From positions 20,481,820 through 20,545,819 of the forward strand of contig NC_092396.1 of assembly GCF_030028105.1 (NCBI RefSeq): 64,000 nt of DNA, written 5' to 3'. Each line of letters opens with the position of its first letter. The first letter of the stretch is position 1. The notes below the pieces were generated by a model that saw only the letters and a list, made by a program, of their open reading frames with translations, did not search any database and was not told where the DNA came from. The DNA is from Mobula birostris (Eukaryota). Of the stretch, positions 2,321 through 60,994 are shown one piece after another. A program made the translations under genes and the position numbers.

Positions 2321-3239
2321 CTGAAAGAAAAAGATGGAAACAGTCATTGGAAATCAGCCTTGATCAAATGGCAGAGCTCAATGGGCTGAATGGCCTGATT
2401 CTGTTCTTATGTCTTAAGCACTTAGAGTGAAGTAATGAAATATGTCTATTAAGTGATGTCTGACAGCCTTCAAACACACAGTAATGGTTGTCCCAGTTAA
2501 CTTTTCCATTAAATCAGAATGGAAAAACTGGCAGTATTCCAGTCAGAATCAGATCATCTGTTCAAGCTCTATTACAGCTCTTGAACACATAGTCTAGGCA
2601 AAAGACAATGTATAAGGGATGTGTACATTTGGAGTGGCATAGTTTAGATATGGCATAAGAATGAAGTTTCTGAGAATCCAGGATAATTTCCCTTAGTGGC
2701 CCAAGAAACATTCTTCTCTCAACCAATATCACCAAAAACCAATAAGTGAGTCACCCCGTTCGTCACCCTGAACAGAACCTTGCAGTATCACCTGAACTGA
2801 AAGTAATTCATAGTTCGTTAAGTACTCAGAAAAGTGTAATAAACCACTACATTAAAAGCACATTGTTATGCAAAATCACATACACAGTCTCCAAAATACC
2901 TCAACACTTCCAAGAATACCTTGGAAACCAAAACTGTTAGTACTTCATATTAGAAGCTAGTAAAGGCTTGGAGAAACAGGGCAGTTATCAGAAGAGATTT
3001 GTATACAGCACTGAAGTAGGGTGACTGTGAGTGGTTTTCCTTTAAGAGCTTGAACTTTGGTATTCAGTTAAACAGTGACACATTAGTGCAAGTCGAGTTG
3101 GTGGATGATAAATATTTGGACAATTTTTTGTTAGCAAGTTATTATCGAAGCATGGCAAGGTAGCTCTGTAATTGGACTGCGTATCCAATAGCATGTAGAA
3201 AATCTCGAATGCTTCCCTGTCATAAATATCCACTCGCAC

Positions 3240-8473: not shown

Positions 8474-9093
8474 CTGCCAAAAGAACATAACGGTATGAGA
8501 AAAAGTGGCTTCACAATTCAATACTTGGAATTAGAATTCATTTAATATTGTCACATGTACCAAGATACAGTGAAAAGCTCATCTTTCAAACTGTCCATGT
8601 AGATCAAATCAAATCATTATACAGTGCATGAAATAAAAGAAAAATATAATGCAGAATAAAGTGTTACAGTGCATAAAGAGTACACTGCAAGGAAATAATA
8701 AAGTGCAGGATCATAATGATGTAGAGTGTGAGGTCAAGAGCTTATGCTATCATCTTATGGAACCATTCAAAGGTCTTATAACAGTGGGGTAGACGCTGTA
8801 ATGGTTAAGCAACAACCCAACTCTATTTTGTGTATTTTCCGACTTCATTCCCATATCATTTTATTCCATTAAGCATCCAAAATTCTAGCAATGGGAACCC
8901 AAAATATATTCAAAGTTCAAGTAACCGTAACCCTCTAGAATAGTAAAGAAATTTCTCAACTCCTAAACTTCTCCAGATTTTATGCTCCCATCTTTCTCTT
9001 GCAAAAGAATATAGCTTCTTTCTGAACCCTGATTTCTGTTTCAATGGGATTATCCACCTATTTATTCCTCCTCTCATTTCTGACTTTAATTTT

Positions 9094-10905: not shown

Positions 10906-11145
10906 GCATACATCATCAACATTTTCCTGAAAAAAATGTTTCCTGTAGCGCTATATTGAAAGCTACTAGAAATATTCAAAAAGGGTGAAGTGAAACCTCT
11001 GGAGTTACCTACCCTTTTACTTACATCCTTAATACATATCAGTTTCAATCCAAAAATGCACGTTGGATATACTCAATGATTAGTTTTTGAAGTACCTTCA
11101 CTGCTACCTTAAAAAATGGATTTTCCTGACAACTGATGTAAGGCC

Positions 11146-11275
11146 TATTGAAGGGTCTTGGCCCAAAACATCGACTGCTTGTTCCCATCCACAGATGCTG
11201 CCTGACCCGATGAGCTCCTCCAGCATGTTGGGTATACCGCTCTAGATTTCCAGTATCTGCAGTAGCTCTTGTGTC
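11146..11275 (+). mobile_element. Penelope-type terminal repeat fragment with a degenerate hammerhead motif
   Basis: GAAGGGTCTTGGCCCAAAACATCGACTG...AGATGCTGCCTGACC..TGAGCTCCTCCAGCA. Confidence 0.6.
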
Positions 11276-12629
11276 AATAATGTCAGGCTAGTTGGTATGC
11301 AGTTCTCTACCTACTCTTCCTCCTTTGAATGAAGACTATTTCAAAATCCCATGAAAGGAGATTTATCAGCATTTGGTTTCTGTACTTCTTTTTAAACTAA
11401 TAATTAATACTTTGAAGTTCTCCACTTTCTTTAGACCCCAATTCCCCAGTATTTCTGGTACACACTTTGTGGTCGTTATGGATCAGACAGAATCCACGGT
11501 TAGCACCAAGAATCAGCAAAATTAAAATGAAAATATCCACATGTAACAATAATATGTTCAGAAACTAGCAACTCAATTAAAAGTTATAATTTAACCTTGG
11601 GGTTCAAATTATTTACAATTTTATCGATAGCCTGAACCACAAGTGCCAACTGATTGACCAGTTATTCTGTAAATAAACCACCCAAAACTTGACTAGATTC
11701 CAGCCAGAAACTCACTCCAGAGCATCGGTTATTCTGTGCAGTAACCTCCCAATTCCCTTGATTCAAATCTAATCTGTAGCTCACTCCTTAGTGTTAAATT
11801 AGTGAACCACCACATCTATTTTTTTCCAGATTCCTTTGTGGTAGGGCCTGGTTACCGGACCCAAGTCTGATACGACCTAACTACAGGCTTAGATAAATAT
11901 AAAGAAATCTCTGAGCTCAAATTGCAATTGACTGGTTCCATACAAATTCAGATTTAAATTGTTGTATACATCTGTCAGTGTACCACCGCCTGTCAATGAG
12001 GGAGCTTAGCGACAAACCATTGAAAAGGTCAGGGGCAAACAACGCAGGCAAGCCCCTTGATCCAGAATTGATTGGTGGGCATCAATCACCAGATGGTGCA
12101 TATAAACACAGCCCATTGCCTGGAGGGACCAGCTCTTTGTTTCTCTCCATCTGAAGGAGACCTGGGCCCAATCTAGTATGCAAGACAAGCTTTTCACTGC
12201 ATCTTAGTACATCTGACAATAATAAACCAATTCCAATTCTTTCTACCTGCTGCCCCACTCAAGACTAATGGGATCTAAGTGTCGAGTTCCAGCCTAATAG
12301 GGAAAATTAAAGAACCTGGGCCTGGATTTGATTGAATCAATAGTGACTGCATCAGGCTGGAATATTACTTTTTACACTGCAGCATGGTTTACAAATAACA
12401 GTTTATTCTGGCTCCCTATTGCACTCTTTGAAATCACTGCCACTGAGTTGCTCACGTGGCATCAAAAGGGAAATATTCAGCTATAACAAAGTTTGTTACA
12501 CTGACCCTCTGCAATATCGGTCATACACTGTACTTTTTCAATGTAAGGGACAGATATTTTATCCAAGAGATTCACAAGGTAGCGCAGAATAAGGTTCGTC
12601 CATCGTCATCGATGAAGACCTCGACACCA

Positions 12630-16251: not shown

Positions 16252-16907
16252 TCCTTGCATTTGTGTGCAAGGAGGCCAAACTACGCACAGAGTTCCATAT
16301 GCAGTTTCACTTAACCCTGACATAATTATAGAAAAATTTCCTTAATCTTTATACAGCAATACTTTTACAATAAAGAAAAATACTATTTGCCCCAATTAGC
16401 ACAATACCTGCAATGTTAACTTCGTGAGGGAAAACTTTCAAAAATCCCCTTCAATACCTACATGTCACCTTTCTATAGATGTTCTTCTTTTCCTTTCCCC
16501 CTACCATTGTGAATATTTTGATACTTCCCTACATTGTTTGTACTTCAGCTGCCGCTTCTTTCGCCCAGTCATTCCATTACCTACGTAAAGCCCCAGACGC
16601 GTGCAATAATCCACCAGTCACAACCTGTCACATTAAAAACGATGCAGTGATTCATTTTTTGGACTTTGCAATAATACACCCCAGAGCAATCACAAGGAGG
16701 AGGGAAGAGTGCCCGGTGTTTGGATGGGGGAAGCCGAGGCACTGATGTGGCTGGAAGATGCTCGGCTGAATGCAAAGCCGGGGGTGGGGTGGGGGGAGGG
16801 CAGGTGTTAGCCACCTCGGAGTTATTATTTACACTCACGGCAAGATCGCTTTAAAGTGTCGGGGGCCGATGGATCGAAGCAGTAGCACGACCCGATCCGC
16901 CACTCAC

Positions 16908-16991
16908 CAGCTCCTCCGGACTGCGGCCCTCCCGCTCCCCGCAGCAACAGCAGCAGCAGCAGCCCCGCCGCAGACCTCGACCGCTCGCCAT
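16908..16991 (-). CDS. CLCN6: CLCN6 (H+/Cl- exchange transporter 6) coding exon 1
   Basis: MASGRGLRRGCCCCCCCGEREGRSPEEL followed by a GTGAGT donor; matches the Cys-rich N-terminus ending in PEEL of vertebrate ClC-6; lies in a CpG island. Confidence 0.95.
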
Positions 16992-17005
16992 CGCCACCAC
17001 CACCC

Positions 17006-17082
17006 CATGTGACCCGCCCACCCGCCTCCCCACCACGTGACGGGCAGGCCCGCCCCCCCCGGGCCGGGCTCGGTCACGTGAC
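17006..17082. promoter_or_regulatory. Cluster of three E-boxes including a perfect CLEAR palindrome GTCACGTGAC (17073-17082)
   Basis: CATGTGAC at 17006, CACGTGAC at 17034, GTCACGTGAC at 17073; MiT/TFE or USF-type sites. Confidence 0.75.
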
Positions 17083-17119
17083 TCCGATCTGCCAGTCACT
17101 CTCGCGGGGCGGGTGGAAG
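17083..17119 (+). other. MTHFR: Probable non-coding exon 1 of MTHFR (5' boundary unknown)
   Basis: Consensus donor AAG|GTGAGT at 17120 in the CpG island; the first coding exon has its own acceptor, so an upstream UTR exon is required. Confidence 0.6.
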
Positions 17120-19619
17120 GTGAGTCGGGCTCAGCGCGAGCGCGAGCCTGGCCCGGCGTGTGCGCGTATGCGCGCGCCGGCAGCGGGGATGGCGAGTTCG
17201 CGACGTGGGCGTCGTCGCTCTGTGGGAATTTAGCCGTCGTGGGTTGGACACGGTGTGGAGGAGGCGGGCCGGGAGTGAGCAGGGAATAAAGAGTGGTTCG
17301 GCCACTATGGAGTGAGGGAACGGTCTGTGTACGGGAAAGTTGAGGCGGATCGGACAGCTGCTCCGCTCCATTCATTCGCCGAGCTCCGAGTGATTTTTAC
17401 CTCCTTACCGACTTTGCGAAGTTTCGGCTCTCTGAAGCAGGCACAACATTGCATCTGCAGACCCTTTGTGCGATCTGTTGGTTCAAATTGGGGGAATACG
17501 TGCCTGTCTGCACCCGTCTGAAAGAAATATTTTTAAAGGAAGTCTGGTTACGCACGTCGGAGGAAAGACTCGCAGAAATCAAAGAGTGGTCTCGTCAACT
17601 CGAAAGTGTTTCAACGGTTCCACAGGTAGGCTGAATGTTTTAAGATATTGAATCAAGTAGTACTCCCAGGGCTGGTGCGAAAACATGTAAATCTTCACCA
17701 CCGCCACCAATTGTATTGGGTGCTGATTTCGTACCGTGACGCCAATATATCAAACGACAAGGATGCTGACTTCGTGACTGGTGAGATGAGCGGCTGAAGG
17801 ATGTATCGCTAAGACGGCTGACGTGATTTTTGTTTATGGCAGGAATGCTGTGGAAATAACACGGGCTTTTTAGAACCATGGACGGGGTTAAGGGAACTTT
17901 AAAGCGGCTGGAAAATCAGAGAAATTCTGATAGTGCACATTGGTTTTGAGGTTTATGAAAGAGGAAGGATGCTTCATGATACCTGGACGATAAAGTTCAG
18001 AAAAACACATACAAGAAATGCATGAGTAGGTCACGTGTGGCCTCTCGACGAAACAAATTCCTTCCCACGACTCTCGAGTATTGCAATATTTCTTGTTTTT
18101 GTTTCAGATTCATTTCTGTAATTTTTTAAGACTTTACTGTAACCTATCAAACCTGTTCCACCATCAAGATCAAGCTATTGTGTGTCCAAAATCCACTTTT
18201 CTGCCTGATTTCCTCAAATATATCAAAGATGTGTTGATTTTGACTTTTCCAAAACAAATTACTAAAAGGTTCAATAATTTATAAACATCTGCATTGAAGG
18301 TATGTCTTCTGGGCAGTTCTGAATGACTGACACTCTTCCTGACACCCTGCCACTAACTGACACTGTTAGGGGCAGTGACACTGACAATGCAACTGGAACA
18401 TCAGTAAAATGTTCAAACAAGACTACTCCTGGTTCTTAACACAAGGGAGTAGAAAGTTTCACGATCAATATCTGTAGGATAACTTGAATTCTTCTAGTAA
18501 ATGCAAATTGTCCATGTATGTCTTCCCTTCACAAAGGTCAAAACTGCACACTGTATTCTAAGTTACTTCAAAAGATCACAGAAATGATTCTTAGTGCAGA
18601 GGAGATTTGTTATCTGGTAATTTGATAAAGGTGTTCAAAATGTGAGTTTAAAAATACCTGGCCCATATTTGTCTCTGTGCTTGCACAATGAATTGTGGTA
18701 TTACAACTCTTATATGGGGGATAGTTTTCATTTACTAAAATTCAGTGCTGCTTTGGGTACTCACTTGTAGGCATCTGTTTTTGCATCTAAGAATAGAGGT
18801 TATTCCATTCTCAGTGAGATTGGATCTCCAAAGTCAACTTACTATCATTTTAGTGTGTCATCTGCAGACCAGTTGTGGGAGTTGGATTTTGAGTGGTGTC
18901 TGAGTGGGCAGTGGATCAGTTGGTGATGTGTCATAAAAAGGGCTACCTTAATCTTTTGCTGTCATTGAACTCCAAACGTGTAGTAGGACTTCTCGAACAC
19001 ACCGAGACATGAAAATGCCAATCATTTTTAGTGGGGTGGGTTCAGTCACAACCTTAGATTGGAGCACTAAATGTTACAGGTTGCTATCACAAGTATTTCT
19101 CTTTGTAAGTTTGAAACTGATGTAACCTGGTGGTTGTTATCTTATTAGATACATAACTCAATTACATAATTCAGTCAATAATGTCAAGGCAGCAGGTATA
19201 TCAATTTATTAGCAATAACCTCCAACTTGAGGGTTTGCATTTTTCATTACCTTCAGGAGTTTCTCACTATTGTTACTTGCAGTGTACATTATTTTCAATT
19301 GTATTTTCCCAAACCAATGAGCTTCTCTTGTTCTGTGGAACAGTTAGTGTAAAGGTTGCAAAATCTGTTGACCGGTATTATGGTGAGTACATTGTAGTTT
19401 CAGTGTTTGGCTAAGTAATGAGAGAGATGCAGAGGATTTTAGTTAGAATTGGATTTTGTTTTTCTTCCAAAGCAGGACTTTAATCCAATTCAAGAGACTT
19501 ATTTTCTTTTTCTTAGGTTAGGGAAGTAAGGTTCTGTAGTGAAATGAAGGCACCTTGATTGTCCAGAGCTGTACAAGCTTGAAACTATCTAATATTCAAC
19601 TGTATCATCAACAATTAAA

Positions 19620-20525
19620 TCTGGAGGGCTGTCAGGGGTTACAGCGGAACATTGATAGGATGCAGAACTGGACTGAGAAGTGGCAGATGGCGTTCAACCC
19701 AGGTAAGTGTGAAGTGGTTCATTTTGGTAGGTCAAATTTGAACACAGAATATAATAATGGTAAGACTCTTGGCAGTGTGGAGGATCAGCGAGATCTTGGG
19801 GTCTGTGTCCATAGAACACTCAAAGCTGCTACGCAGGTTGACAGTGTTGTTAAAAAGTTGTATGGTGTGATGGCCTTCATCAACCGTGGGATTGCGTTCA
19901 AGAGCCGTGAGGTAATATTGAAGCTAAACAAGACCTTAGTTAGACCCCACTTGGAGTACTGTGTTCAGTTCTGGTCACCTCACTATGGGAAAGATGTGAA
20001 TACTATACATAGAGTGAAGAGGAGATTTACAAGGATGATGCCTGGATTGAAGAGCGTGCCTTATGAGAATAGGTTGAGTGAACTTGGCCTTTTCTCCTTG
20101 GGACAATGGAGGTTGAGAGGTGTCCCAATAGAGGTGTGTGTTGCTTGAATTTGCAGCATCTGCAGAACTCCTGTTGTAGAGGTGTATAAGATGTGAGAGA
20201 CATGTGAGAGATATAAGATATGTGGATACCCAGGGCTGAAATGGCTGACACGAGGGAGTATAGTTTTAAGGTGCTTGGAAGAGGGGATGTCAGAGGTAAG
20301 TTTTTCACACAGAGTGTGATGGGTGTGTGGAATGCACTACCAGTGACAATGGTAGAGGTGGATACAATAGGGTCTTTTAAGAGACTCTTAGATAGGTACA
20401 TGGAGCTTAGAAAAATAGAGGGCTATTCAGTAGGGAATTTCTATGCAGTTTCTAGAGTAGGTTACATGATCGGCACAACATTGTGGTCCAATGGGTCTGT
20501 AATGTGCTGTAGATTTCTATGTTCT
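19620..20525 (+). mobile_element. CR1 LINE 3' fragment
   Basis: KWQMAFNPGKCEVVHFG...LVRPHLEYCVQFWSP; TTCTATGTTCTA tail. Confidence 0.9.
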
Positions 20526-26760: not shown

Positions 26761-27156
26761 GTATAGTCGTAAATTATTAGTCAAAGTCCAAAGTACATGT
26801 ATATCACTGTATATTAAGCTGAGATTCATTCTCTTCTGGGCATTCACAGTAGAACCATTTAAAACAGCACACAAAGACGGACAAACAATCAATGCACAAA
26901 AGGCCAACAAATTGTGCAAATACAAAATGAAAAAAAAAATAATAATAAGTAAGTACAAATATTGAGACCATGATTTGCAGAGTCCTTGAAAGTGAGTCCA
27001 GAGGTGGTGGAATCAATTCAGTGTTGGCGTAAGTGAAGTTATCCGCTCTGGTTCAGAAGCCTGATGTTTGAGAGGTAATAACTATTCTTAAACCTGGTGC
27101 TATGACATCTAAGGCCCCCTGTGCCTCCTTTCTGATGACAGTAGCGATACGAAAGG

Positions 27157-27604
27157 ATGGCCTGGAGAAGATTTACCAGAATGCTCATGGATTATGATCA
27201 GAGATTAAGGGAGCTAGGGCTTTACTCCTTGGAGAGAAGGAGGATGAGAGGAGACATGACAGAGGTATACAAGATATTAAGAGGAATAGGTAGAGTGGAT
27301 AGCCAGCACCTCTTCCCAAGGGCACCACTGCTCAATACAAGAGGACATGGCTTTAAGGTAGGGGGTGGGAAGTTCAAGGGGGATATTAGAGGAAGGTTTT
27401 TTACTCAGAGAGTGGTTGGTGTGTGGAATACACTACCTGAGTCAGTGGTGGAGGCAGATACACTAGTGAAATTTAGGAGACTACTAGACAGGTATATGGA
27501 GGAATTTAAGGTGGGGGGGGTATATGGGAGGCAGAGTTTGAGGGTCGGCTCAACAATGTGGGCCGAAGGGCCTGTACTGTGCTTTACTATTCTATGTTCT
27601 ATGT
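27157..27604 (+). mobile_element. Young CR1 LINE 3' fragment, same subfamily as 9094-10905, inserted in a Rex/Babar tail
   Basis: Near-identical to the reverse complement of about 9100-9550; TTCTATGTTCTATG tail. Confidence 0.9.
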
Positions 27605-28128
27605 AAGAGTCCTTGATTGATGTTGCTTTCCTGCGACAGTACTTCTGGTAGATGTGCTCAATTACTACTGTTTTAACAGTGAACTGTTGTGCAACACAAG
27701 TAAGATTCATAACACTAATAAATGTACAACTGTACATGTTTAGCCTAATGCCAGTTTTGGATTTGGTTAGTGGTGCACGTGGAACATCCACACTGTATTT
27801 ATGTGAAATCACAGAAAATACTGAGGAACATAATTCTCAATTCACGCCTTCCAGGGTTTGAAATTTGAGGATTGAGATGAAATGCCAGTTTGAAAAGCTG
27901 GTGGTTACAAGCCTTCCATTTTAAATTTGAGAAGATGAACATGGACTAAAATGTGGATCCCTTGCATTGATATCAGTCCCATCATAAATTCATGAGCACT
28001 TAATTTCCCAAGTAAACAATTATACAGAAGATATTTACTGATTCAAATCAACTCTTTAACCAGTATTTTTTTCATCAAACAAATGGCTGAGAATTTGTGT
28101 GGGGTACTTGTTGCAATTGATATTTCAG

Positions 28129-34614: not shown

Positions 34615-34800
34615 AAAATGAGAATCTGCAGCTGCTGGAAATGCAGAGTAGCATACACACAATGTTGAAGGAACTCAGCAGATCAGGCACCATCCATAGA
34701 AAGGAATGAACAGTCATCGTTTCAGTCTGAGACCCTTCATCAGGGCTGGGAAGGGGGGGGGGAGAAGGACTAGAAGCTAGAAGGTAATGGGTGAATGGCA
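34615..34800 (-). mobile_element. Penelope-type terminal repeat fragment with hammerhead motif (34711-34748)
   Basis: Minus strand CAGCC-CTGATGA-AGGGTCTCAGACT-GAAAC-GAT-GACTG. Confidence 0.65.
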
Positions 34801-35546: not shown

Positions 35547-35680
35547 ACAGTCCTGAAGGGTTTCGGCCCAAAACGCCAACTGCACTTTTTTCCGTAGATG
35601 CTGCCTGGCCTGCTGAGTTCCTCCAGCATTTTGTGTGTGTTGCTCCGATTCCAGCATCTGCAGATTTCCTCTTGTTTGTA
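35547..35680 (+). mobile_element. Penelope-type terminal repeat fragment
   Basis: CAGTCCTGAAGGGTTTCGGCCCAAAACGCCAACTG plus the shared family body. Confidence 0.62.
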
Positions 35681-36779
35681 GTTCTTCTCAATGTACTGTT
35701 TATGGCACCTAATTCTGCTCTGAGGAATCTTTTAGTCCTCAGATATCCTAATTCAAAATCCTGTTTTCATGTACCAGGTTTCATTTGTTGCCAATCTTTG
35801 TTCCCAAGGATTTTTTTTTCCTTAAACCTAAAATATTGTTTCTGGTTTAGTCTAATGTTTTAATATGCATTTCTTTTCTTAAACTTCAGGGACAAACTGA
35901 AACACACTTCTCCAAGGATTGCTTTAAACTTTATTCTTATCCACAGCTGGTGAAAATGCCCTAATTTTACTGAAGTCATACATTTTACACAGATTGTTTT
36001 TCAACAGATAATGGTCCAAGCAACAATATTTTGGTCCCTATTCCTCTGAAAAAACACAGGGCTCTGGTAGCAATGAAGGGTCACCAATAAAACCAGGTAT
36101 GGTGTGGCACAGATCAGCTTTGTTAACCTGCAGTTAATATACATTTAGCTTTTGCATTCTGAGTGCAAGATCATCTGCTCTCATTGATTTGATCTTACCG
36201 CTCACATTGTGTTTGGCTTTTGTGTTTAAAGTGGTGATGGGCTATGTAACACCATGCATTTATGAATGGGAATTAAACTTTATAAAGATGCCACCACTGT
36301 ATATTCAGCTGTCACCCACTCTACCCTCTCCATATTTTCACTGCACTGCTCATTATTCTATTTTATCTTTCAACTGTTCAAATTCTCAAACAGTGTGAGC
36401 CTGAGTGAGAGAAAAGCAATCTGCTGCTGTAGAAACTAATGTTTTTATCCAATTAACAGGCAGAGGGTGTGTGAGCAATCAGTATATGATCTAAGGAATG
36501 AGCCTGGCAAGAGCAGTGAGTTCAAAAACTTAATGGATGCTTTGGGTGACACATGTCAGAACGGCCTCAGAATGAATTCCAGTAACACCGGCTGCTGTGT
36601 AGTCAGCCCTTCAGGATAATCATCTATCTTGTTTGACAGACAATAGAAAACTTTGTTGTCAGTGAAATATGTGCTCTACAATCTTACCAAGTACAAGTAC
36701 AAAAGTACAAAAGGGCAAGTACATATATCAAAACACTTACTAAAAAGCTAATTTTCCTTCTGCTGAAACTGACACATAC

Positions 36780-37050: not shown

Positions 37051-37799
37051 TTCTTTTCCAGTGTGTGTGTCTCACTTCTTTGGGCATTACTGAATATCTT
37101 TAAGCTTTGTATTTCATGGAGAAAAGGATAAACTATTAATCTATGTGCAAGTTCAATTTATTGCTAGAACCATGTGGAGGGCTTTTGATACAGATTTGAG
37201 ATTATCTCTCAATCAAGACAAACCATTCCATTTTATCCAATTAAACACCACCACGTAACAGAACTGTCACACACACTTCTGATTAGAATAAGCAGAACTC
37301 TTGGCAAGTGAATACAAGTCCCAGACACAGTCATTGATTAGTTCAATCTTTAACTGTATCTTTAATCAGGATGTGATTCCCAAGTTGCACAGCAAAACCT
37401 GATTTTAGTCAAAATAGAAATAAGCTTTCTGGAAGAAGTCCAAAACAAGTCAGCTGGGATTATCTGGTGAGTCCTTTTTGCAAAGTATGTATGTCTGTCT
37501 GTTTGTGAATCCACATGTTCATATCTGTATTTGAGCTCAGAAGGTGATTATGCTTGTGGTGTACTTAGTAACATACTCAATTAAATATTTTAAAAAACCA
37601 TTGCAGTCAGTATTGCAGTTGCCACAATGGAACCATGCCAAGCACAAGATTGTAATATCACAGGAATTAAAGCAGTACATTTACAAAATGTATCAGTATA
37701 TTTAATTTCAAGGAGATCGGGACATTTCCCATTTAAACTTAAACCAAGTTATTAAAAGAGTGGAACTAGATGAAGAATGACTGTGATATTATTTTGTTA

Positions 37800-37945
37800 C
37801 AAGCACAAGAAAATCTGCAGATGCTGGATGGAAATCCAAAGTAATACACATAAAATTGCTGGAAGAACTCAGCATGCTAGGCAGCATCTATGGAAAAGAG
37901 TAAACAGTCAACGTTTCGGGCCAAGACCCTTCAGCAGGACTGGAA
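37800..37945 (-). mobile_element. Penelope-type terminal repeat fragment with the best-preserved hammerhead (37905-37942)
   Basis: Minus strand CAGTC-CTGCTGA-AGGGTCTTGGCCC-GAAAC-GTT-GACTG. Confidence 0.68.
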
Positions 37946-38282
37946 AAAAATATTATTTTGTTTCTGCTTTACACTCAGTCGTCAATATTGCATCAAACTA
38001 CAGCCAGCTACACGGAACTAGATTAAATTTGTTAAAATTACTTTGCAACTGGGTTGAGGCATTTTAAAAATCTACTCAAGCACAATTTTGTTCTAGCACA
38101 CTTGCACTCAGTGGAATGGAACTATACATAACATGAGTCTACATCTTCAAAAATGTAGGCATGTTCCATTTGACAGCAAATGGAAATTAACTTTAGGGCA
38201 TCACTTAATCGGACATCTTGATGTTCAGGAATGGAATTGTCGTGAGGGGACCATAATCTCATCTGTTTTTTATTGATGTAGG

Positions 38283-38815: not shown

Positions 38816-40294
38816 CAGTATCTTTTCTCATTCATGCAGGAATAATCAGCCACTACAATACTTACACAGTCTGTCCCTGAACAGTCTCAGCTTTTCCTTT
38901 TAAGTTGAAATAATTCCAAAATTGCACAGTGATCAGGTACAGCTGCTTATTGCCAAAACACTACCATCTAGACTTATGGGGAGATGAGTTAAAAACATCG
39001 AACCCAGATAAAAGCTTTTGCACAATTAACATTTAAATGAGAAAATTCAGTTATTCTTGGGTTTACTGCAGTACACACAGACATATCAAGCAAGAACACC
39101 AATGTCATTATAAAAAAGACAACCACACAGACCCTCTGCTGCTTTTAATCAAATGTATTCAAAACTGAATACTGAAAAAATAAGTAAAAAGCCCCAAATA
39201 CTGGATAATATCCATTAATCCATCAAAATGAAACAGAGGAAATAGGAATACAAATACTTAAATGCACAGAAACTACTAATTTAGAGTAAGTTTTATAAGG
39301 AAACATGCCCCAAGTATAACTCGTTAAAGGCATCTCAAAAACAGATGCTGATAGATAAAAGTCCACAATAAGTTCCGCAAGTGAGAGTGGAGAGAAAACA
39401 CAGACATTTAATGTATAATTTTAAATCGACTACATTTTGAACCACAAGATTCTCCTCAGTGGAATTCTCAGTGCCATGAACTGGGAATGATGCTGGGTAA
39501 GCTCACAAGGTCACCGAACCGAACCTAACCCTGGTTTCTGTGATGTTGCATGCAGGTTAATTACCAGCATATTACAAAGCATGAAGTTAGGATCTTCTCA
39601 GAGCATGCCTAAGAAAATGTACCATCTCTAACCTGTCCAATGGGATGCTAACTTACCAAATGACAGACAGGAACAGACCGACACTGGACACAAGGGTTTT
39701 GATAGTCAACACTGTACATCTCCACAAGCAAACACAGTGAGAAGCTCAAATCTGTACTAGGAGTGAGCTTGAGGTTCACCAACATCATGAGTCACTCTGT
39801 TTTTCAAAGGCCAATCTGTACCAGGTAGTGAAAACCTAAAAATAAATTAGACACATCAGGTTTACAGTTAATGGATTCTGTGTGTGAAGGAGAGTCAAAT
39901 TTCTGTTATAGGAGTGTATAGTTCAAAATCTGAGACCAAATTGTTCCCCTGTTGAATTACAATTGTGCACCCTATAACATTGTTTCTGTAATGTTTTACA
40001 GTGTATAATCAGAGTGAATAGCAGTTCAAACAAAACACTAATTAGGAAGCTCTGGAACATTTTAGCTCAGACTATGAATAACTGTCCATTTCTATGTCAC
40101 CACTGCTGAAACAATGTGACTAGGGAGGGGAGGAGAGGTGAATTCTGCATCTCACTCCAAAGGCAATTGGTAAATCCAGACCTGATGTTCATTCAGGTAT
40201 GGTGTTACTGAAACAGTGCATTAAGGACATGAACCAAAACATTTGCAGGCCAAATCAAAAAGAGAAAATCTGTTACAAGAAGTAGCTTATCCCT

Positions 40295-40695
40295 CATCTG
40301 GGCCCCTTGTCTAAGAAAAGATGTGCTGGCATTGCAGAGGGTCCAGACGGGGTTCACAGGAATGATCCCAGGAATGAAAGGGTTAACATGTGAGGAGCTT
40401 TTTATGGCTCTGGGCCTGTATTTACTGCAGTTTAGAAGAACTGGGGGGGGGGGGGGAGATCTCATTGAAACCTATCAAATATTGAAAGGCCTAGAAAGAG
40501 TGGATGTGGAGAGGATGTTTCCTGTAGAGGACGAATCTAGGTCCAGAGGACACAGCCTCAGAATAGAGGGACATCCATTTAGAACAGAGAAGAGGAAAAG
40601 TTTCTATAACCAGAGGGTGGTGAATTCAATGCCACAGATGACTCTGCACACCAGATCATTAGGTCTATTTAAGGTTCAGGTTGATAGGTTTGTGA
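40295..40695 (+). mobile_element. CR1 LINE 3' fragment
   Basis: ALQRVQ..FT.MIPGMKGL..EE...GDLIETYQIL. Confidence 0.8.
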
Positions 40696-40699
40696 TTTA

Positions 40700-40738
40700 T
40701 CAGGATATCTCTGCTTTACTCCAGATCTTGTGTAAATC
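40700..40738 (-). CDS. C1orf167: Probable terminal coding exon of the C1orf167-like gene
   Basis: Strong pyrimidine tract plus CAG, phase 0, DLHKIWSKAEIS*; abuts a CR1 fragment. Confidence 0.45.
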   Translation of the reverse strand, partial: DLHKIWSKAEIS

Positions 40739-40992
40739 CTGGATAGGAGAAAGAGAAACCAGACAGATTTCCTGACTACTTATCTATGATCCCAAAATTA
40801 GTGTTTTGGGAAATGGACGGAAAGTCAGTTGTAATTCCTCAAAAAAATGGCATGGGTGGATAAAGGTCAGATCTCTGATCCCCAGTCATAAAGAAAGGCC
40901 AATGCGTGATAAACCAGAGCATTTAACAAAGGGGATCAGCACCTTCCAGGGAGGCTGACTAGCATTGCAATGTATGTAACTTTGGTACCTAC

Positions 40993-44522: not shown

Positions 44523-44847
44523 CTAGGATTTGATGAGAAAGCAAACCAGTTCAGCTTAGCTGGTTATCTAATGTGCAGAAATACAAACCAGTAATCTTTT
44601 TGGTAAATCCCCAACATGTGGTTTGTAGCTATTAAGTTATGTGCTTTCTACCCAGTATCTCGGCCACAATGGTTCTCATCAGGGTGGTGTTGCATCTCTT
44701 TAACAATAAATAATAAATGTTGTTCATAATAGGAAATATATATACAAATACAAAAGAAGAGGAACAGTGCACTGCCCTTTATATACTCTATGTAGTGTTG
44801 TTCAGTTTATACATTCACAATCTCATTGTACTGTATATTATAAATAA

Positions 44848-45010
44848 GAGATTCTGCAGATGGTGGAAATTTTGAGCAACACACACAAAATGCTGGAGGA
44901 ATTCAGTAGGTCAGTGGGTATTTATGGAGGGATATAAACAGTCAACATTGACTATTCATTTCCCTCCACAGATGATAAATGCTGTGTGCCTTCAGCATTG
45001 TGTGTGTGGT
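44848..45010. mobile_element. Inverted pair of Penelope-type repeat fragments
   Basis: Minus copy and plus copy fused at CAGTCAACATTGACTA. Confidence 0.55.
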
Positions 45011-45517
45011 TCTGTACATTAGCTGTGACGGCACACTTTTCTGTACATAACACCACAGCACTGCCAATTCTGGTGGGGCGGAGGGGAGAGGATACACACA
45101 GGGCTCACTCAGCCTTAGATGGTATTAGTAAAGTTCTTAGGTTTTCATAGTAAAATGTGAAACGTTCCATCTTACGATACAGGTTGCCCGTGATACCACT
45201 ACAGTACTACTGACACCTGACCTTTATTGGTTTAATTTAAACATGGCAGCTTTAAATTATTTCAAAACAGATTGACTTTTTCAATGGAATATGTACCTAA
45301 AAGTCTGGAAACATTATCAATGCCATTATACACCCAAGTTTTATTCTCATGATCCGTGATGTGCTGAGGGGGGGTTGTTACATTCCTTTTCGTTACCTGG
45401 CAGCAATGAGTTAAAGAACAGCAAAGAATAGGAAAGTGGATTCCAAACAATTGTGAAGTCTGTTTTCAGCATGGCAGAGAGCATAACAGCACAGCAGATA
45501 GCGTGGACTTGTCATAC

Positions 45518-48242: not shown

Positions 48243-48373
48243 GAGACACAAGAGACTGCAAGTGCTAGAATCTGGAACAACAAACAGTCTGCTGGAGGAA
48301 TTCAGTGAGTTGAGCAACATATATGGGGTGGAAAGGAAATGTTGATGTTTCAGGTTTAAACCCTGCATCAGGG
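48243..48373 (-). mobile_element. Penelope-type repeat fragment (related subfamily)
   Basis: Minus strand CCCTGATGCAGGGTTTAAACCTGAAACATCAACA...GAATTCCTCCAGCAG. Confidence 0.5.
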
Positions 48374-49641
48374 TACGTAGAGATTTCCTAGCTAAAGGCA
48401 TCTCATACCAGGTATAGACATGGTCATCAAAGTTTATAGCTTTAGGTGAAAGTGGATGCCGAGTTCAGAAAGATGCACAATAATCATTTGCTGCTTACAC
48501 AAAATGCCGGCCGCCCACTACAAAGTGACAAGATGAGCCACAAAGTGCTAGACTGCATCCAAAGCTGATACAATCACCAAGTCCCAGGAAGGTACCAAGG
48601 GGAAAGTGGTCATCCATCTGTGTCCAAGGATGCACATGACTGACACAAATTCAACTAGCATAAGAGCCACTGATTATTTACATCTCAAAGAAAGCAGTGT
48701 GTGAAAGCACTGTATGTTTCAATGTACATAGAATGAGTAAATATGAATCTGAATTATAGGAATGCTATCGGTTTGGTGTCAGTAATGTTACAATCAACAA
48801 TATGTTCTGGCAGATGTATTTTAGTACTACTTAGAAACCCTGAATACTGTGCAAGTACCTGAGGCTTTGTAACTCTGTGGAACCACTCATCATACTTTTC
48901 ACAACTACTCCTTGAAGAATTACAACTTGATTACTTCTTTGGTGCTTTTTATTTGGCAGTCAGGTGGTGCTGCTCTCTTGTGGCCGGTTACCAATATTGC
49001 TTCCAAATAGCTGCTGTCAAGCGCTGCCCTCTTCTGGCCCCTGTGTAATCCTACCTCCTCTCTTCCTAACCAGCAGTCTGACTGTCCCTCACTATGGTAC
49101 CAAAGGTGGTGATGCTAACTCTAATTTACTTTAAACAGTCAATTTAAAAGATGTATGTTCTGTAGGTAGAAGGATGGAAAAAGATTAGAAAGAAGGGGAT
49201 GACACCCTGGTGCTACATTAGTTGTCCATAATGGAGAAAAATACAGAAATTTCTGTCTTCAAATCTGAGTGTTGAAACTTGAGGAGGATGCAATGGATTT
49301 AAGTAAAACTTGCTGCTGATTCACCTCAATGATCCTTGGGAAGAAAAATATCCGAAAGGTTTTTAGATAATGATAATTGTTGGTTGGGCAGATACTGGAA
49401 GGATTTTTCTCAGAAAAGTGACCAAGGACAAGGCAAGAAAATCAATAAAAACTGGTTAAACTAAAAGCAGAGAAAATAGCTTTCATACAAAAGGTAGTGG
49501 GGAAGTCAAATGGCTCAGGAGTAAAATGATTTTATCTTTCTGAAGAAAACGTCATTATTTAAGCAGAAATAGGGGGATTGGGAAGAAACTGGGAATATGG
49601 ATTAGCGACAATGTTGTGATGGACAAATCTAATTTACCTAC

Positions 49642-49894
49642 TGTTTGAATGAGGATTGTAGCTCGATGCCTCACAGCCTGCTGTAGTAATGTCCTCTGCC
49701 TCCAGCACTGAATAACTCTCTGTGCTGCTCTAAATTTCCTGTAACTCTCTGAGAAGTGCTGCAGCTCCAAGTGATACCTCCACTGACTAAAAGCCCCTAA
49801 CAGGACCTGTTGGTTCCGTACAGTTTGAAATGTCCACAGCCTCTGCCACATCTTCTCTTTCTGAAGTGCAGCAGAGTGCCAAGCCCACAGATAT
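49642..49894 (-). CDS. C1orf167: C1orf167-like exon
   Basis: 253 nt, YLWAWHSAALQ...VLLGAFSQWRYH...VIQCWRQR; phase-consistent. Confidence 0.75.
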
Positions 49895-50802
49895 CTGGAC
49901 CAAGAAAATAATGAATTAGTAATGTTTCACGTGGTGATAAGAGTTACACAATAGAAATTAAGGGGTATGTTAGCCCCTTGAATTAAATGCTACTCAGTTC
50001 CATTGTAACTTTGCATCCTTTAAATACATCAACATCTGACTAACAAATGATCTTGCACCTAATGCTATCTATGAAAGTTTCAAATTTCCCTATGAACAAA
50101 ACTACTTCATATCTTCACTCATGACAGGCCTGACTCTAGTTAGGAGGCTGTATGTCTTTGTTCCAAATTTTCTACCAGGAAAAAAGCTCTTTTTCTATCC
50201 AACCATCAGTTTTTAATTCACATTTCAAAATCTTTAATTAAATCACCCCTTGGTCTTTTACATTCCAAGATATGCAAGACTTGTTTGTGCTATGTCCAAT
50301 TATTGTCATCAAAAACTAAGTTACAGCACAGTAGAAAGGTGCAAAGTCAAAACTTCTACCATTGGATTCAGTCCACGAAGATCAGTCACCAAGATCCCTC
50401 TGGTAAACGTAACTTTGATCTGCATGTAACTTAAGCCTCTTTGATGCTCCACGCAAATTTATTACTTTAAAGCCTAGCCCTCTGCCCTGGACAGTTAGGT
50501 GCACTCAACATCCTTGCTGTACACGCTGCAACACAACGATCTACTGGGGTTTCTCCAGTGACCACCTGTAATTTTGGATGCAGAAAGCTATAGTGAATGA
50601 CCACAATAGGCTGCTGATCACACAGGCTGTAACAATCTGCCAGCACTCTGTCAGGGATGGCTAGTGCAGACAGCTTTAACTTTTAGAAGGATTGAGAGTT
50701 CCCACAATAATGAGTGAGGCTGACAACCCCGTTCCTAGTGTATGACTAGATGGCATCATACCACACACTGGACAAATGGTGGACCTCAGTGTTTTCACTG
50801 GC

Positions 50803-52706: not shown

Positions 52707-52756
52707 CTAGAAGAAGCAATACAAATTTGCAGAATATGAATTGTGAGATTTGGCAA

Positions 52757-52977
52757 CAAACACGAAATGCTGCAGGAACCCAGCAGGCCAGGCAGCATCT
52801 ATGGGAAAGAGTACAGTCGATGTTTCGGGCCAAAACCCTTCGGCAGGACTTCAGCCCAGTTTTGGCCCAAAACATCGACTGTACTCTTTTCCATAGATGC
52901 TGTCTGGCCTGCTGAGTTCCTCCAACATTTTGTGTGCTTTGCTCGGATTTCCCACATCTGCAGATTTTTTCTTGTTT
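52757..52977. mobile_element. Inverted pair of Penelope-type repeats forming a hairpin with arms of about 80 bp
   Basis: 52757-52836 is the near-perfect reverse complement of 52859-52937. Confidence 0.75.
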
Positions 52978-53794
52978 GAGATATGAGAATTGGCAATTAC
53001 TTTTACTAAAATGGGTACAACTATCACTTGTTAATACTATGAATAAGCAAAAAGTACGAAGAATTGCCAGAAATTAAGGAAGGACTATACTGATGTATAG
53101 CTCATCAAAGACCATTTCTGCTGTGGGGCCCATTGCCTGCATTTACTGAATGTTTAAACAACATTTCCAACATCTCTATGGTCCATAGTATTTTACAGTT
53201 ATATCCAAGTGATCACTCTACTTTCATACCACTAATTATAATTGATATAGTCCGGCAACACTGCAGGTGCTAACCAATCAAAGCCTGAGGGTCGAAGACG
53301 CAAAGGAGTCACGAGGGCCCAGGTCATCAGGATCGCAGGGTGGAAGTTGAGGCCTGAAGGTCAAACATGTGATCGGCATCCTGGAGTGAAGTCTGAAGTT
53401 GGAGGCCTGATACCTGCAAGTCTGAGAACCTGGGAACAAGGCCAGCTGGTCCGTAGGTAGATTGTCCTGGGGTGGGAGGCCTGGCTGGGTAGTGTGAGTG
53501 GGGCTGGGGGGGATGGGAAAGGGGCTTGTTTTGCTGTTGGTATTTTGTTGTTGCTGCTTGCATTGTTCTTAGGAAAATTGCGGGCATGCTACGCATGTTG
53601 GCACCAGAAAGTGTGGTGACACTTGCAAGCTGTTCCCAGCACAACCTTGGGTGTACTGGTTGTTAATGCAAATGACGCATTTCACTGTATGTTTTTATGT
53701 GCATATGATAAATAGATCTGAATCTGAATCTACCTGGACGATACTGTAACTGGTCTCCCTATCTAATGTCAGACATGAGAAGATTTCCCTATTT

Positions 53795-56761: not shown

Positions 56762-57689
56762 CTAAACAGAGAAATATAGAAAAGAGATTAGGTTGGCTGA
56801 AAGAATTAAGGCATTGAATTTACAATTGTGAGAGATGACTCCTTTCCTTATGAGAGGGAAAGGGAGGAAATTAGGGTAGCAATGGCAAAGTAGAGAAGAG
56901 CTGGTATAAGTAGTAATCAAAAAAGGGAGAGGAATTTCACTGCAAGGAGTCTGGTTTCTTCCCCAGTGCAGTTGCCCATCTATCAAAAGGCCTTGTGTAC
57001 TAAACTAAAAACAATAATAATGACCTCTTCAAAATAAGTGTTCTGACAAACCACCGCAGTACCTGGTAAAAATCAGCAGAGGGTAGTAGTAAGCTAGATG
57101 TACCACCATATATATTTAAATTTCCAATTATCCATAAGATTTTTCTGCAGGTCCAGCAACACAGCACAGATCCTGGAATTGGTACAGCTAGGAAAGTTTG
57201 CTGGGGCAATAATGTCAATTAAGACTAAGAGTATAACATCTAGGTTTGGCAGAATGGCATCGACTCTGAATACACCAAGATATAGCCAATTCAAATGTAG
57301 AGGATTTACATCATATGCGCATATGATATACTTTGGTGGTTCACTCCATTTTACCAAACTCCATCTATATCTTTCTACTTACTTACTCAAAAAACGTCCT
57401 AAATTTATCCAGGCCTTTTCTCTCTCAATTGAACCCTATGTTGGTAGGTTCTACATCACAGTAACTTATCAGATATAATGGTTCCCCATGAATTTGTTAA
57501 TTACCCCTACCTTAGCATTCTCCATTATTTCTATATCCACTTTGTCAAAACATTATATAGTATGAGCGACTTGACAAGTATTTTACACTATATAATGTTT
57601 TGAACATTTAGCACCTCTGAATTGTTTTCAGCCAGATTCTTCTTAGTCACCTCACATGAATCTACAGCAAAATTAATTTGGCATATTTA

Positions 57690-59292
57690 CAAACCCCATT
57701 TCCAGAAAAGTTGGTATATTTTCCAAAATGCAATTAAAACAAAAGTCTGTGATATGTTAATTCACGTGAACCTTTATTTAACTGACAAAAGTACAAAGAA
57801 AAGATTTTCAATAGTTTTACTGACCAACTTAATTGTATTTTGTAAACATATACAAATTTAGAATTTGATGGCTGCAACACACTCAACAAAAGTTGGGACA
57901 AAGGCATGTTTACCATTGTGTTACATCACCTTTCCTTTTAATAACACTTTTTAATCGTTTTGGAATTGAGGATACTAATTGTAGTAGATTTGCAATTGGA
58001 AATTTTGTTCATTCTTGCTTGATAGAAGACTTCAGCTGCTCAACAGTCCGTGGTCTCCGTTGTCTGATTCTCCTCTTCATGATGCGCCATATGTTTTCAA
58101 TAGGAGCTAGATCTGGACTGGCAGCAGGCCAGTCAAGCACACGCACTCTGTGTCTACAAAGCCACACTGTTGTAGCCCATGCAGAATGTGGTCTGGCATC
58201 GTCCTGCTGAAATAAGCATGGATGTCCCGGGAAGAGACATCGCCTTGATGGCAACATATGTCTCTCTAAAATCCTAATATACGCCTCAGAGTCAATGGTA
58301 CCTTCACATACATGCAACTCACCCATGCCGTGGGCACTGATGCACCCCCATACCATCACAGATGCTGGCTTTTGCACCTTTTGCTGATAACAATCTGGAT
58401 GGTCGTTTTCATCTTTGGCATGGAGAACTCGATGCCCGTTTTTTCCGAAAACTAGCGGAAATGTGGACTCATCTGACCACAGCACACGGTTCCACAGTCT
58501 TTCAGTCCATCTGAGATGAGCTCGGGCCCAGAGAACTCGCCGGCGTTTCTGCATAGAGTTGATGTATGGCTTCCTCCTTGCGTAATACAGTTTCAAGTTG
58601 CACTTCTGGATGCAGCGACGGACTGTGTTGAGTGACAATGATTTTCCGAAGTACTCCCGAGCCCAGGTGGCTATAATTGTCACAGTAGCATGACGGGTTT
58701 TTAGGCAGTGCCGCCTGAGGGCTCGAAGATCACGCGCATTCAACAGTGGTTTCCGACCTTGCCCTTTATGCACTGAGATGTCTCTGAATTCTCTGAATAT
58801 TTCACAATATTATGTACTGTAGATGTTGAAAGACCTAAATTCTCTGCAACCTTGCATTGAGAAATGTTCCTTTTGAACTGACTAACAATTCTCTCACGAA
58901 TTTTGGCACAAAGGGGTGAGCCACGACCCATCCTTGCTTGCAAAGACTGAGCCTTTGATGGACGCTACTTTTATACCCAGTCATGATACCTCACCTGCTA
59001 CCAATTAGCCTGCTTAATGTGGAGTCTTCCAAACCGGTGTTACTTGAATATTCTGTGCACTTTTCAATCTTACTTTAACTCTGTCCCAACCTTTGTTGAG
59101 TGTGTTGCAGCCATCAAATTCTAAATTTGTGTATATTTACAAAATACAATTAAGTTAGTCAGTAAAACTATTGAACATCTTTTCTTTGTACTTTTGTCAG
59201 TTAAATAAAGGTTCACGTGAATTAACATATCACAGATTTTTGTTTTAATTGCATTTTGGAAAATATCCCAACTTTTCTGGAAATGGGGTTTG
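57690..59292 (-). mobile_element. Full-length Tc1/mariner (DD34E) DNA transposon, 1603 bp
   Basis: TA dinucleotide on both sides; 211-bp TIRs (57690-57900 and 59082-59292) beginning CAAACCCCATTTCCAGAAAAGTTGG, with an internal direct-repeat copy of AAAAGTTGG. Confidence 0.95.
57910..58931 (-). pseudogene. Tc1 transposase pseudogene
   Basis: MGRGSPLC...HTH...WSDES...FQQD-34aa-E (SPDLAPIEN); one 1-bp frameshift near 58790 and a TGA at 58009-58011; 1022 nt against 1023 for a 340-aa ORF. Confidence 0.92.
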
Positions 59293-60014
59293 TAGATGAT
59301 TAGTCTTTGTCAGGGTTGACTAGATGACACTCACTTAAGAAATTTGATGTCTAGCAGACACAAGCAAATTACATTTCAGGTTATTAACCTACTTTGGAAT
59401 CTACTCTCCATCATGGAAATGCATGGACAAAGGGCTGAGGGGTGACTACATTGTCCAAATTCGTCAAAAAGCAGCAAACTCATTCACTGTTTCTATAAGT
59501 TTTCTTCTTCAACAGATGAGTTCGCCAGATTAGTTATAACAATACACCTTTGACAACTTTAAACAAATCTAAAGGTTAAAATCTCATTTGTACCATTTGT
59601 TCAAAGCAAGGAATTTCAGAGATTTGAGTGCATAACACGGACAATATCGAGAATGTGCTCTGCTGCCAAAGGTGGGCTGGGGAGGGGGTGGGGGAGGTCA
59701 CAGATGGTGGTGTGAATTCACTCCTAGAGTGCTCAGGTACACAGCACTATTTATAAAGTAAGAAAGATATTCGCCAATAGATGCCAGTTAACCAACTAAA
59801 TCACTAAATTAACTACCTGGTTCTTAACATATTTATATTTATGGAACTTTACGGTATGCAAATCGCTGCCAAGTTTTCTGTATTATAATGGTAATCCAAA
59901 TTAGTTAAACGACTATCAAGTGCCAATGCACTATTAACAATACAAGACTTTGTTCCTTTTCTCTTAAACTCTAATTAAAAGTTTACTGAGCAGATTTACA
60001 CACTTGATATATAG

Positions 60015-60243
60015 AATGATGATGGGCCATGTCATCAGAAAGGGAGAAATAGAATGCCTTACATTACAAGGCCGTATGCCTGGGAAATGTGGAAGAGGAA
60101 GCCCAAGAAGAAAATATGTGGACACTGGGAAAGAACTAACAGATCTAAGTGTGCGAGATATCATTGACACTGCATGGGATCGTTCGATGTGGAAAGCCAT
60201 GATTGCCCAAGCGTGTAACGCGTAAGGCACATGAAGAAGAAGA
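60015..60243 (+). mobile_element. RTE-clade LINE 3' fragment
   Basis: GHVIRK......TLQGRMPGK.GRGSPRRKY......DRSMWKAMI; (GAA)n tail. Confidence 0.75.
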
Positions 60244-60278
60244 TACAGAAAGACTGTGACTTTCTCTCGTGTTCAAAC

Positions 60279-60475
60279 CTGTAGTTTGTTGCTGCACCTC
60301 TGTATGGCACAGTTGAAATAGGTGCGGAATATCCACTCTCTTCCCACGTTTTATGTGTAATAGTGTGCGCCAATGTAGGAAGCAACTCTCCAAATTCTCA
60401 GCATGATTCCTGAACAAGGTGTGTTGGGAGGCACAATCCTGTGCAAGAAACCGTGCCTGTGCCTCAAAGCAATCC
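60279..60475 (-). CDS. C1orf167: C1orf167-like upstream exon (open frame; further 5' exons not located)
   Basis: Pyrimidine tract plus AG, donor GTTTGA; DCFEAQARFLAQ...NLESCFLHWRTLL; end phase fits the next exon. Confidence 0.6.
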
Positions 60476-60994
60476 CTACAAAGAGGAACACAAAAAGCAT
60501 AGGTCAGAGCTGTGGAGATTCACAACTAGTATATCCAACAGTGCATCATGATGAGAAAAATTATTTACCACTTTAATGCTGCAGGGAAACTATGCATAAT
60601 CCCTGGATAACAGATGTAAACTTCGACAGCCTTGCTCCAAACTGTGCATCACAGTTCACAGTGAGGACCAATTACACACAGCGAAAGGAACGACCACATG
60701 CTGGCACTGCACCTCCAGGACTTCTGAAGCTCTCAGTCAAGCATTTGTGCTGCATAGGGCAATTTTCAAAGAAGGTTCAGCATCTTTTTCTTCTCATTTT
60801 AGTCTTCCTGCCTCTCCTGGAAGCAACACGTCTGATTCCTTCTGTGGTGGTTCTTTTCTGACAGGTCCCTAGGTACCCTTCTTCGCGTCAGCCTGGACTA
60901 AAGTACTGAAGGACCAAACATGCCTAAATCCTGTCCTGAGCAGCTGTAGGATCCCTAATAACATCTAGCTAAAATGAATTAACTCAGCACTGGA

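Follow-up and report, generated by a model that had tools for sequence, protein, structure and literature searches.

The window, a stretch of 64,000 nucleotides of the Mobula birostris genome, carries scattered pieces of one repeat family, among them the minimal type I hammerhead motif CAGUC CUGCUGA A GGGU CUUG GCCC GAAA CGUU GACUG on the minus strand at 37905-37942 (see table). According to folding, stems I and II and the palindromic stem III of this motif are all pairable. A profile built from genomic copies detected 10 family pieces in the window (reversed control 0), and this search, combined with a check of the sequence itself, recovered all seven loci listed in the initial annotation (about 11150, 34711, 35548, 37905, 44940, 48340 and 52814). 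The copy at 37905 had been described there as carrying one core change. C6 is the sole change within the core, but the motif departs from the consensus of that annotation at three positions, namely C6, one base of loop II, and H17, which is U with GUH retained.

Table. Pieces of the Penelope pLTR family in the 64-kb window
Feature	Position	Strand	Remarks
Minimal type I hammerhead motif	37905..37942	-	C6 (37934) replaces A6; predicted cut between 37910/37909
Short Penelope pLTR insertion, whole, 151 bp	37799..37949	-	profile piece 37943-37795
Target-site duplication, left copy, 13 bp, AT-rich	37786..37798	.	perfect match to right copy
Target-site duplication, right copy, 13 bp, AT-rich	37950..37962	.	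perfect match to left copy
Fold-back insertion, left arm	52753..52851	-	profile piece 52851-52723; ends at about +93
Fold-back insertion, right arm with tail	52859..52983	+	begins inside stem II
Older copy	34616..34754	-	profile piece 34749-34616; A6 core retained; stems I, II, III and cut triplet broken
Copy with 3-nt core gap, GAAA altered	35548..35681	+	profile search
Old decayed copy, broken core	11140..11280	+	profile search
Decayed fold-back pair, left arm	44846..44949	-	motif's stem III/I end only
Decayed fold-back pair, right arm	44944..45040	+	profile search
Very old decayed copy	48250..48372	-	profile search
Tail-only piece of Penelope pLTR family	20134..20177	+	profile search

The flagged motif is part of a complete short insertion composed of a pyrimidine tract of ~11 nt, the hammerhead, a conserved downstream hairpin and a tail reaching to about +130. 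The left arm of the fold-back insertion contains a second hammerhead (52814-52851) with a CUGCCGA core and C-subfamily flanks, and this insertion is bordered by a 13-bp duplication with 1 mismatch (52744-52756 and 52984-52996). No target duplications of at least 10 bp were present at the other five window loci tested. At 34711-34748, CUGAUGA is kept and GUH is lost as originally stated, but stems I, II and III are broken as well; the 44940 pair was correctly said to keep the stem I/III end alone and proved to be a decayed fold-back. An intact core is found in 0 window copies and a min-HHR descriptor has 0 matches in the window, in agreement with the earlier remark that no single copy is perfect. 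The short and fold-back copies of the window are likely the shortest insertion products, and inert.

Other features surround these copies. A Tc1/mariner-type transposon with 219-bp inverted repeats of 96% identity occupies 57685-59297 and includes an ORF with DDE_3 and HTH (58009-58809, minus strand). LINE-like reverse transcriptase (RT) fragments, which we take to be CR1-like, are located at 9091-10950, 19543-20148, 27145-27606, 40233-40775 and 61660-63001; an RVT_1 match was obtained at 61663-62493, and the other fragments were recognised by translation and self-BLAST. Three further open frames, all of them possible host exons, had no family match in Pfam, namely one of Gly-, Pro- and Arg-rich composition (16851-17396) and two exon-like ones on the minus strand (49555-49926 and 60145-60519).

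The initial annotation had inferred a link to Penelope, and the genome bears this out: the motif is positioned ~290-320 nt behind an ORF encoding RT and GIY-YIG and is present in both pLTRs, and pLTR copies run on in the upstream direction into a decayed frame that encodes RT and GIY-YIG. A 64-aa RT piece yielded 22,407 genomic candidates, with open frames of up to 946 aa among the 150 that were scored. We examined 16 of the longest ORF loci among the scored candidates; the motif follows the ORF in 16/16 (in L093 by BLAST), and an unbroken start-to-stop ORF was seen in 0/16. Locus L096 shows the layout inverted copy, pLTR (core at 3059), ORF, pLTR (core at 6566). In the 896-aa open frame of L086, inspection by eye revealed DKG, the RT motifs, a CX4CX2C linker (CERNKCYTC) and a GIY-YIG-like end. 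Pfam assigned RVT_1 (E 4.4e-6) and GIY-YIG (E 0.012) to the ORF, both below the curated cut-offs, and a PDB search with the ORF gave no match. The traits of EN+ Penelope-like elements (PLEs) are present, i.e. pLTR direct repeats, an adjacent inverted copy and a tail (3' ends near +90 and +130). The Neptune and Nematis clades possess a CX2-5CxxC linker between RT and EN (accessible part of PMC8557442), and judged by its linker sequence the element is EN+ Penelope-like, of the Neptune or Nematis type. It shares with these clades the single ORF with RT, DKG, the linker and GIY-YIG at the C-terminus, and with EN+ PLEs in general the pLTRs, the adjacent inverted 5'-truncated copy and a 30-40 bp tail (PMC8557442).

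That the motif is a minimal hammerhead with palindromic stem III was likewise correct, as its architecture is the min-HHR consensus given in the accessible part of PMC4209133. Shared features comprise the CUGANGA-H core, the extra nucleotide before stem II, G10.1-C11.1 or G-U, GAAA, a loopless palindromic helix III, NUH, a short helix I, the position in both pLTRs, and the many solitary and opposite-strand copies (PMC4209133). The layout is nearly identical to that of the Acropora Neptune motif (PMC4209133, Fig. S3); the 56 motifs of that figure include 0 from cartilaginous fish. The extra A between core and stem II is a published min-HHR feature, too (PMC4209133), and the unpaired nucleotide between 9 and 10.1 is A in 9/9 subfamily consensuses. 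The window copies and, on account of position 6, the C6 subfamily fall outside the CUGANGA core of PLE min-HHRs. In the accessible part of PMC4209133, the core variant is U3-A8 and A6C is not among the variants, whereas the Mobula family has A6C.

The family was called abundant from the window alone, and the genome (4.01 Gb) agrees. A random sample of the large contigs, made up of 80 pieces of 10 kb chosen at round coordinates (800 kb), contained 168 copies, corresponding to 2.1 per 10 kb (SE 0.21) and to an estimated ~0.84 million genome-wide; 110/168 cover the core. Genome-wide, 79 sites match the 38-nt consensus exactly (control 0). Copies with an intact core, sought beyond the window, were found at 61,921 sites by a relaxed pattern in which N7, the loop and 11.1 were free and CUGANGA, GAAA and NUH were required (control 0). 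The largest vertebrate counts in the accessible part of PMC4209133 are ~4,000 and 9,000, obtained with different descriptors. A general min-HHR descriptor returned 16 sites per 800 kb, every one belonging to this Penelope family (reversed control 0). Row C_L170 was left out of the alignment of copies, as its coordinates were wrong.

The ends of the copies are informative about how they were inserted. Among 166 random copies, 35 start at -5 to 0 relative to C3 (5.8 per base), as compared to 0.06-0.3 per base from -299 to -21, 1/166 at the predicted cut site and 17/166 beyond -300; local alignment may halt at the edge of a conserved block, and the flanks beyond these starts are mostly unrelated sequence or the inverted arm. 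Short starts are alike in A6 and C6 copies, 14/20 C6 copies being short. Four public runs, made up of contigs of uncertain kind, displayed no positions with an accumulation of ends. The 3' ends of the random copies cluster near +90 and +130, ~40 nt apart, in agreement with the tail of PLEs and with the pair of internal sites at which the anole element primes (PMC11167929, accessible part). We also considered a common spliced first exon as the origin of the 5' pile-up and rejected it; the upstream flanks of short copies are unrelated and the starts are scattered over -5 to -1.

Since reverse transcription traverses the motif completely and halts at the 5' edge, this edge is likely the start of the template, which would then be uncut. 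The element RNA would thus have its first nucleotide at the 5' strand of stem I or slightly within it, the protein of the element would nick AT-rich DNA and prime reverse transcription ~90 or 130 nt behind the core, and the template would mostly be uncut RNA. Regarding the proposal of a ribozyme-bearing element, the hammerhead motif in the pLTRs stands, but the insertions look copied from uncut RNA. The Poseidon element PAc of Anolis is alike in its two start sites of reverse transcription that make the tail, in its AT-rich targets and in the insertion of unprocessed RNA (PMC11167929). PAc belongs to the Penelope/Poseidon clade and its ORF starts at stem II (PMC11167929), whereas the Mobula element is of the Neptune/Nematis type by its linker and has its first Met ~165 nt behind C3 (L096).

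Most copies are ~100-140 bp long with shared ends, and 38 head-to-head pairs occur among the 168 copies, features that could also be expected if the short copies constituted a retrozyme or SINE of their own, non-autonomous and with circular RNA. We regard this as very improbable. The 5' ends form a continuum reaching into the ORF, subfamily markers are common to short and long copies, tandem arrays of units were not seen, the ends of short copies mismatch the cut site, and inverted ends with a 30-40 bp tail are known from PLEs (PMC8557442). Non-LTR retrozymes are non-coding tandem units, each with an HHR (accessible part of bioRxiv 10.64898/2026.07.22.740005, a tandem-retrozyme survey in which one chondrichthyan was sampled); the copies described here lie scattered, grade into a coding element and are arranged head-to-head rather than in tandem.

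Sequence comparison demonstrates constraint on the motif. The nine subfamily consensuses differ at ~3 of the 38 motif positions, at a silent ORF divergence of up to 0.48, and the changes concern N7, loop II, helix I (C-G to U-G), the 10.1-11.1 pair (G-C to G-U) and A6C. The 10.1-11.1 pair is G-C, but G-U in 24/25 copies of the youngest subfamily; the idea that this G-U is unusual was dropped, as it is present in published motifs (PMC4209133). The covariation that had been envisaged for stems I and II did not emerge: among the nine consensuses, whose divergence is low, helices I and II show no two-sided, compensatory pair change and only one-sided changes that keep the pair. As, in addition, the 100 nt downstream of the motif are conserved equally to it, the constraint does not single out catalysis. 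A scan with Rfam Hammerhead_1, the search suggested initially, was unsuited to the family, with even a perfect copy escaping detection and no hammerhead family appearing at E<=10 in the window or around the perfect copy.

Helix III is the loopless palindrome ACGU and a double hammerhead can be drawn with standard pairs alone, but at -19.9 versus -33.7 kcal/mol for an alternative dimer it is not the predicted energy minimum. For the monomer, the predicted minimum is an alternative hairpin in which G5-A6-N7-G8 pairs with C15.2-G16.2-U16.1-C17. In A6 copies this dead fold is favoured over the hammerhead-like one by 2.2-4.0 kcal/mol, but by just 0.2-0.3 kcal/mol in the two C6 copies of the window, which have other changes too. 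The modelled energies would fit cutting that is either weak or assisted by protein, a behaviour reported for other PLEs.

One may ask whether a role as start site, internal promoter or protein-binding element is the main reason why the motif persists, catalysis being vestigial in all lineages. The copy starts at the front edge of the motif favour a start-site role, and the missing two-sided covariation, the tolerance of A6C and of the G-U pair in the youngest subfamily, and the internal promoter of Drosophila Penelope (PMC2377424, accessible part) are compatible with a non-catalytic one. However, the changes between subfamilies hit N7 or loop II or preserve a pair, as the hammerhead fold predicts, the core is identical across animal phyla despite different stems (PMC4209133), and the youngest lineage carries A6. 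We therefore consider a purely vestigial ribozyme improbable.

Several further features were observed in and around the motif. A short UGCUG...CAGCA hairpin at +60 to +85 from the core is retained in all subfamilies with a loop that varies between them, and is a candidate protein-binding or priming site. Upstream of the core, all subfamilies have a pyrimidine tract and a CAG/TAG ending inside helix I, reminiscent of a splice acceptor (window 37938-37949, minus strand); the single helix-I change of the young lineage preserves YAG, and in Drosophila an intron end maps to the 5' end of helix I (PMC4209133). With U at 11.1 (L096:3081-3083, young subfamily), a second register of stem II is possible, i.e. 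A10.1-U11.1 without an extra nucleotide. The downstream part of the element in antisense orientation (L053:1518-1623, minus strand) has a weak Rfam match to RMST_8, which stands for a conserved stretch of the lncRNA RMST (21.8 bits, E 0.041; the gathering score is 80). This match is probably due to chance.

Next to A6, position 6 is frequently occupied by C. Random copies have A in 91, C in 14, G in 2, T in 1 and a gap in 2 cases (n=110), and 14/110 translates into a genome estimate of ~70,000 C6 copies (share 7-20%). In the strict pattern, C6 accounts for 1,771 genomic sites versus 1,126 for G6 and T6 together. C6 is tightly linked to sequence outside the motif. With the C-type upstream marker and positions 6-7 left free, it was counted by eye in 94 of the first 100 of 1,237 sites (A 3, T 2, G 1); among the 912 sites with the B-type marker, the first 100 have 66 A, 23 C, 10 G and 1 T, C6 being found in 3/43 of one marker variant and in 20/57 of the other. 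The difference between 94/100 and 3/43 in these listed sites has a p of 2e-25. An ORF-only tree of 44 copies, each covering at least about 600 nt, agrees, as its 14 C-type copies need 3 label changes compared to 12.1 after shuffling. Fold-backs L283, L285 and L419 have C6 in both arms. C6 copies are linked to the ORF and retain all other core bases as well as the stems. C6 is a subfamily state, fixed in one subfamily, and not only decay. The core change that the initial annotation treated as damage is real, but by its linkage to markers C6 is largely inherited. G6, present in 10/100 of the listed B-type sites versus 2/110 random copies, possibly marks a small A6G subfamily.

A mutational hot spot or repeated independent decay could place C6 on several flank types, where it is indeed found. 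Such an origin of the C6 excess is hardly credible, for it is contradicted by the marker linkage, by the 1/100 of listed sites with C6 in the early young type, and by the clustering of C6 copies on the ORF-only tree.

Divergence from the own consensus at non-CpG sites is ~8% for the C-type copies, 8-9.5% for the B types and 0.7-3% for the young lineage. The ORF was under purifying selection between the C6 master types: B2-C6 and C-C6 are separated by 5 changes in all, of which 4 are silent and 1 is a replacement (p=0.01), and the dN/dS of copies versus their own consensus (0.46-0.63) is far above that between masters. The C consensus has 0 stops in 402 called codons. As regards the window, C6 of the 52814-52851 copy is clearly inherited. 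The flagged copy has flanks of the B1 type, where C6 is uncommon (3/43 among the listed sites of that variant), making inheritance probable and not certain; we lean towards inherited C6, a private mutation being possible.

Amplification of the A6C subfamily to an estimated tens of thousands of copies indicates that cutting is likely unneeded for insertion, although C6 copies could have been mobilised in trans with the help of A6 RNA. Core mutants of PAc still insert in vitro, and the function of the HHR in EN+ PLEs has been called unclear, perhaps even parasitic (accessible parts of PMC11167929 and PMC8557442, respectively). We conclude with good confidence that the repeat is the pLTR end of an abundant EN+ PLE, that its 38-nt motif is a min-HHR for which weak cutting is predicted, and this solely in a dimer or with the help of protein, and that cutting is likely dispensable for insertion.

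It remains to be weighed whether the C6 motif is itself still a working ribozyme, rescued by the element's protein, by Mn2+ or by the weaker inactive fold, with cutting needed somewhere in the cycle. A6C lowers hammerhead cleavage (PMC3088659, PMC7151607, accessible parts), and the identical core substitution is found in the natural hammerhead of phage Bcep176, which is slow in Mg2+ and active in Mn2+; Bcep176, however, is a single monomeric phage ribozyme, whereas the motif described here is a predicted dimer-type minimal one fixed in a retroelement subfamily. The Mn2+ activity of the phage A6C hammerheads (PMC7151607), the anole hammerhead that cuts only with protein (PMC11167929), the retention of every other core base and all stems in the C6 subfamily, and the shrunken predicted lead of the inactive fold in the two window copies speak for residual activity. 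On the other hand, the A6C mutant of a fast hammerhead fell to 3.55e-6 per min in Mg2+ at 0.3 mM ions (PMC7151607), the insertion ends show no relation to the cut site in A6 copies as well as in C6 copies, and the other core bases may persist merely owing to a short C6 period. We thus consider a working C6 ribozyme unlikely, and keep to the reading in which cutting is dispensable for insertion.

The youngest large lineage, Y, has A6. The order in which the ORF gains its diagnostic sites is B1 (A6), B2 (A6), B2 (C6), C (C6), Y (A6). As the youngest A6 lineage adjoins the C6 lineage by these ORF sites, A6 may have been lost and then regained, for which the sites are suggestive only. In this scenario, a master lineage would have lost A6 by A6C, continued to transpose under selection over two or more consecutive masters, and left a descendant that regained A6 before the youngest large burst. 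We place it slightly below an even chance. Four-taxon ORF sites group C with Y against B2-C6 and B1 in a ratio of 4:0:0 (of 494) and against B2-A6 and B1 in a ratio of 7:0:0 (of 713); when the distant D family serves as outgroup, the ratio is only 1:1:0 (of 229). Uniting the C6 groups in a single clade meets borderline rejection when consensuses are used (p-AU 0.049) and no rejection when individual copies are used (p-AU 0.114). Neutral C-to-A changes on the C-to-Y branch affect 2/110 fourfold sites, and A6 occurs in 3/100 copies with C-type flanks (first 100 of 1,237 sites). We looked for an abundant sister subfamily that combines A6 with C-type flanks, without success; the search gave 61 sites in total, and 3/30 inspected ones were C-type.

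Recombination or two gains also fit the distribution of A6 and C6. Among C6 sites with a shared upstream word, 12 of the first 100 of 763 have Y-type flanks, a total about as high as decay could give. Older Y classes make up 6/9 of the classifiable Y-flank C6 copies versus 1/21 of unselected A6 copies (p=0.0009 without correction for age; 3 and 4 rows, respectively, were unclassifiable). The oldest-looking Y copies found are A6, in a search that required A6. C6 was not enriched with the early-Y marker, the listed sites having C6 in 1/100 and A6 in 98/100, and the view that late C copies are closest to Y was rejected, as these form a branch of their own (3 sites). Fold-back L419 (G000:C3:46449500-46455000), with C6 in both arms, has flanks between the C and the earliest Y types and is a candidate transitional form.

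A literature search, with subscription journals, Repbase and Dfam outside its reach, returned no paper on hammerheads of cartilaginous fish or on an A6C Penelope subfamily. The element and its motif are of a known kind; the amplified A6C lineage and the possible return of A6 are the new addition. Naiads are PLEs lacking the HHR (PMC8557442, accessible part), whereas here the loss concerns a single core base inside one family. The ~62,000 core-intact minimal hammerhead sites of this genome far exceed the vertebrate counts in PMC4209133, the descriptors being different. As successive masters differ at one core base, they provide matched A6 and C6 substrates, whose cleavage rate, insertion ends and amplification lend themselves to direct comparison. 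With each A6 and C6 master represented by thousands of dated copies, hammerhead function in Penelope elements becomes testable. If A6 was truly lost and regained, the family would represent a natural loss-and-regain experiment, according to which hammerhead cutting would be dispensable for Penelope insertion and yet favoured in the long term.
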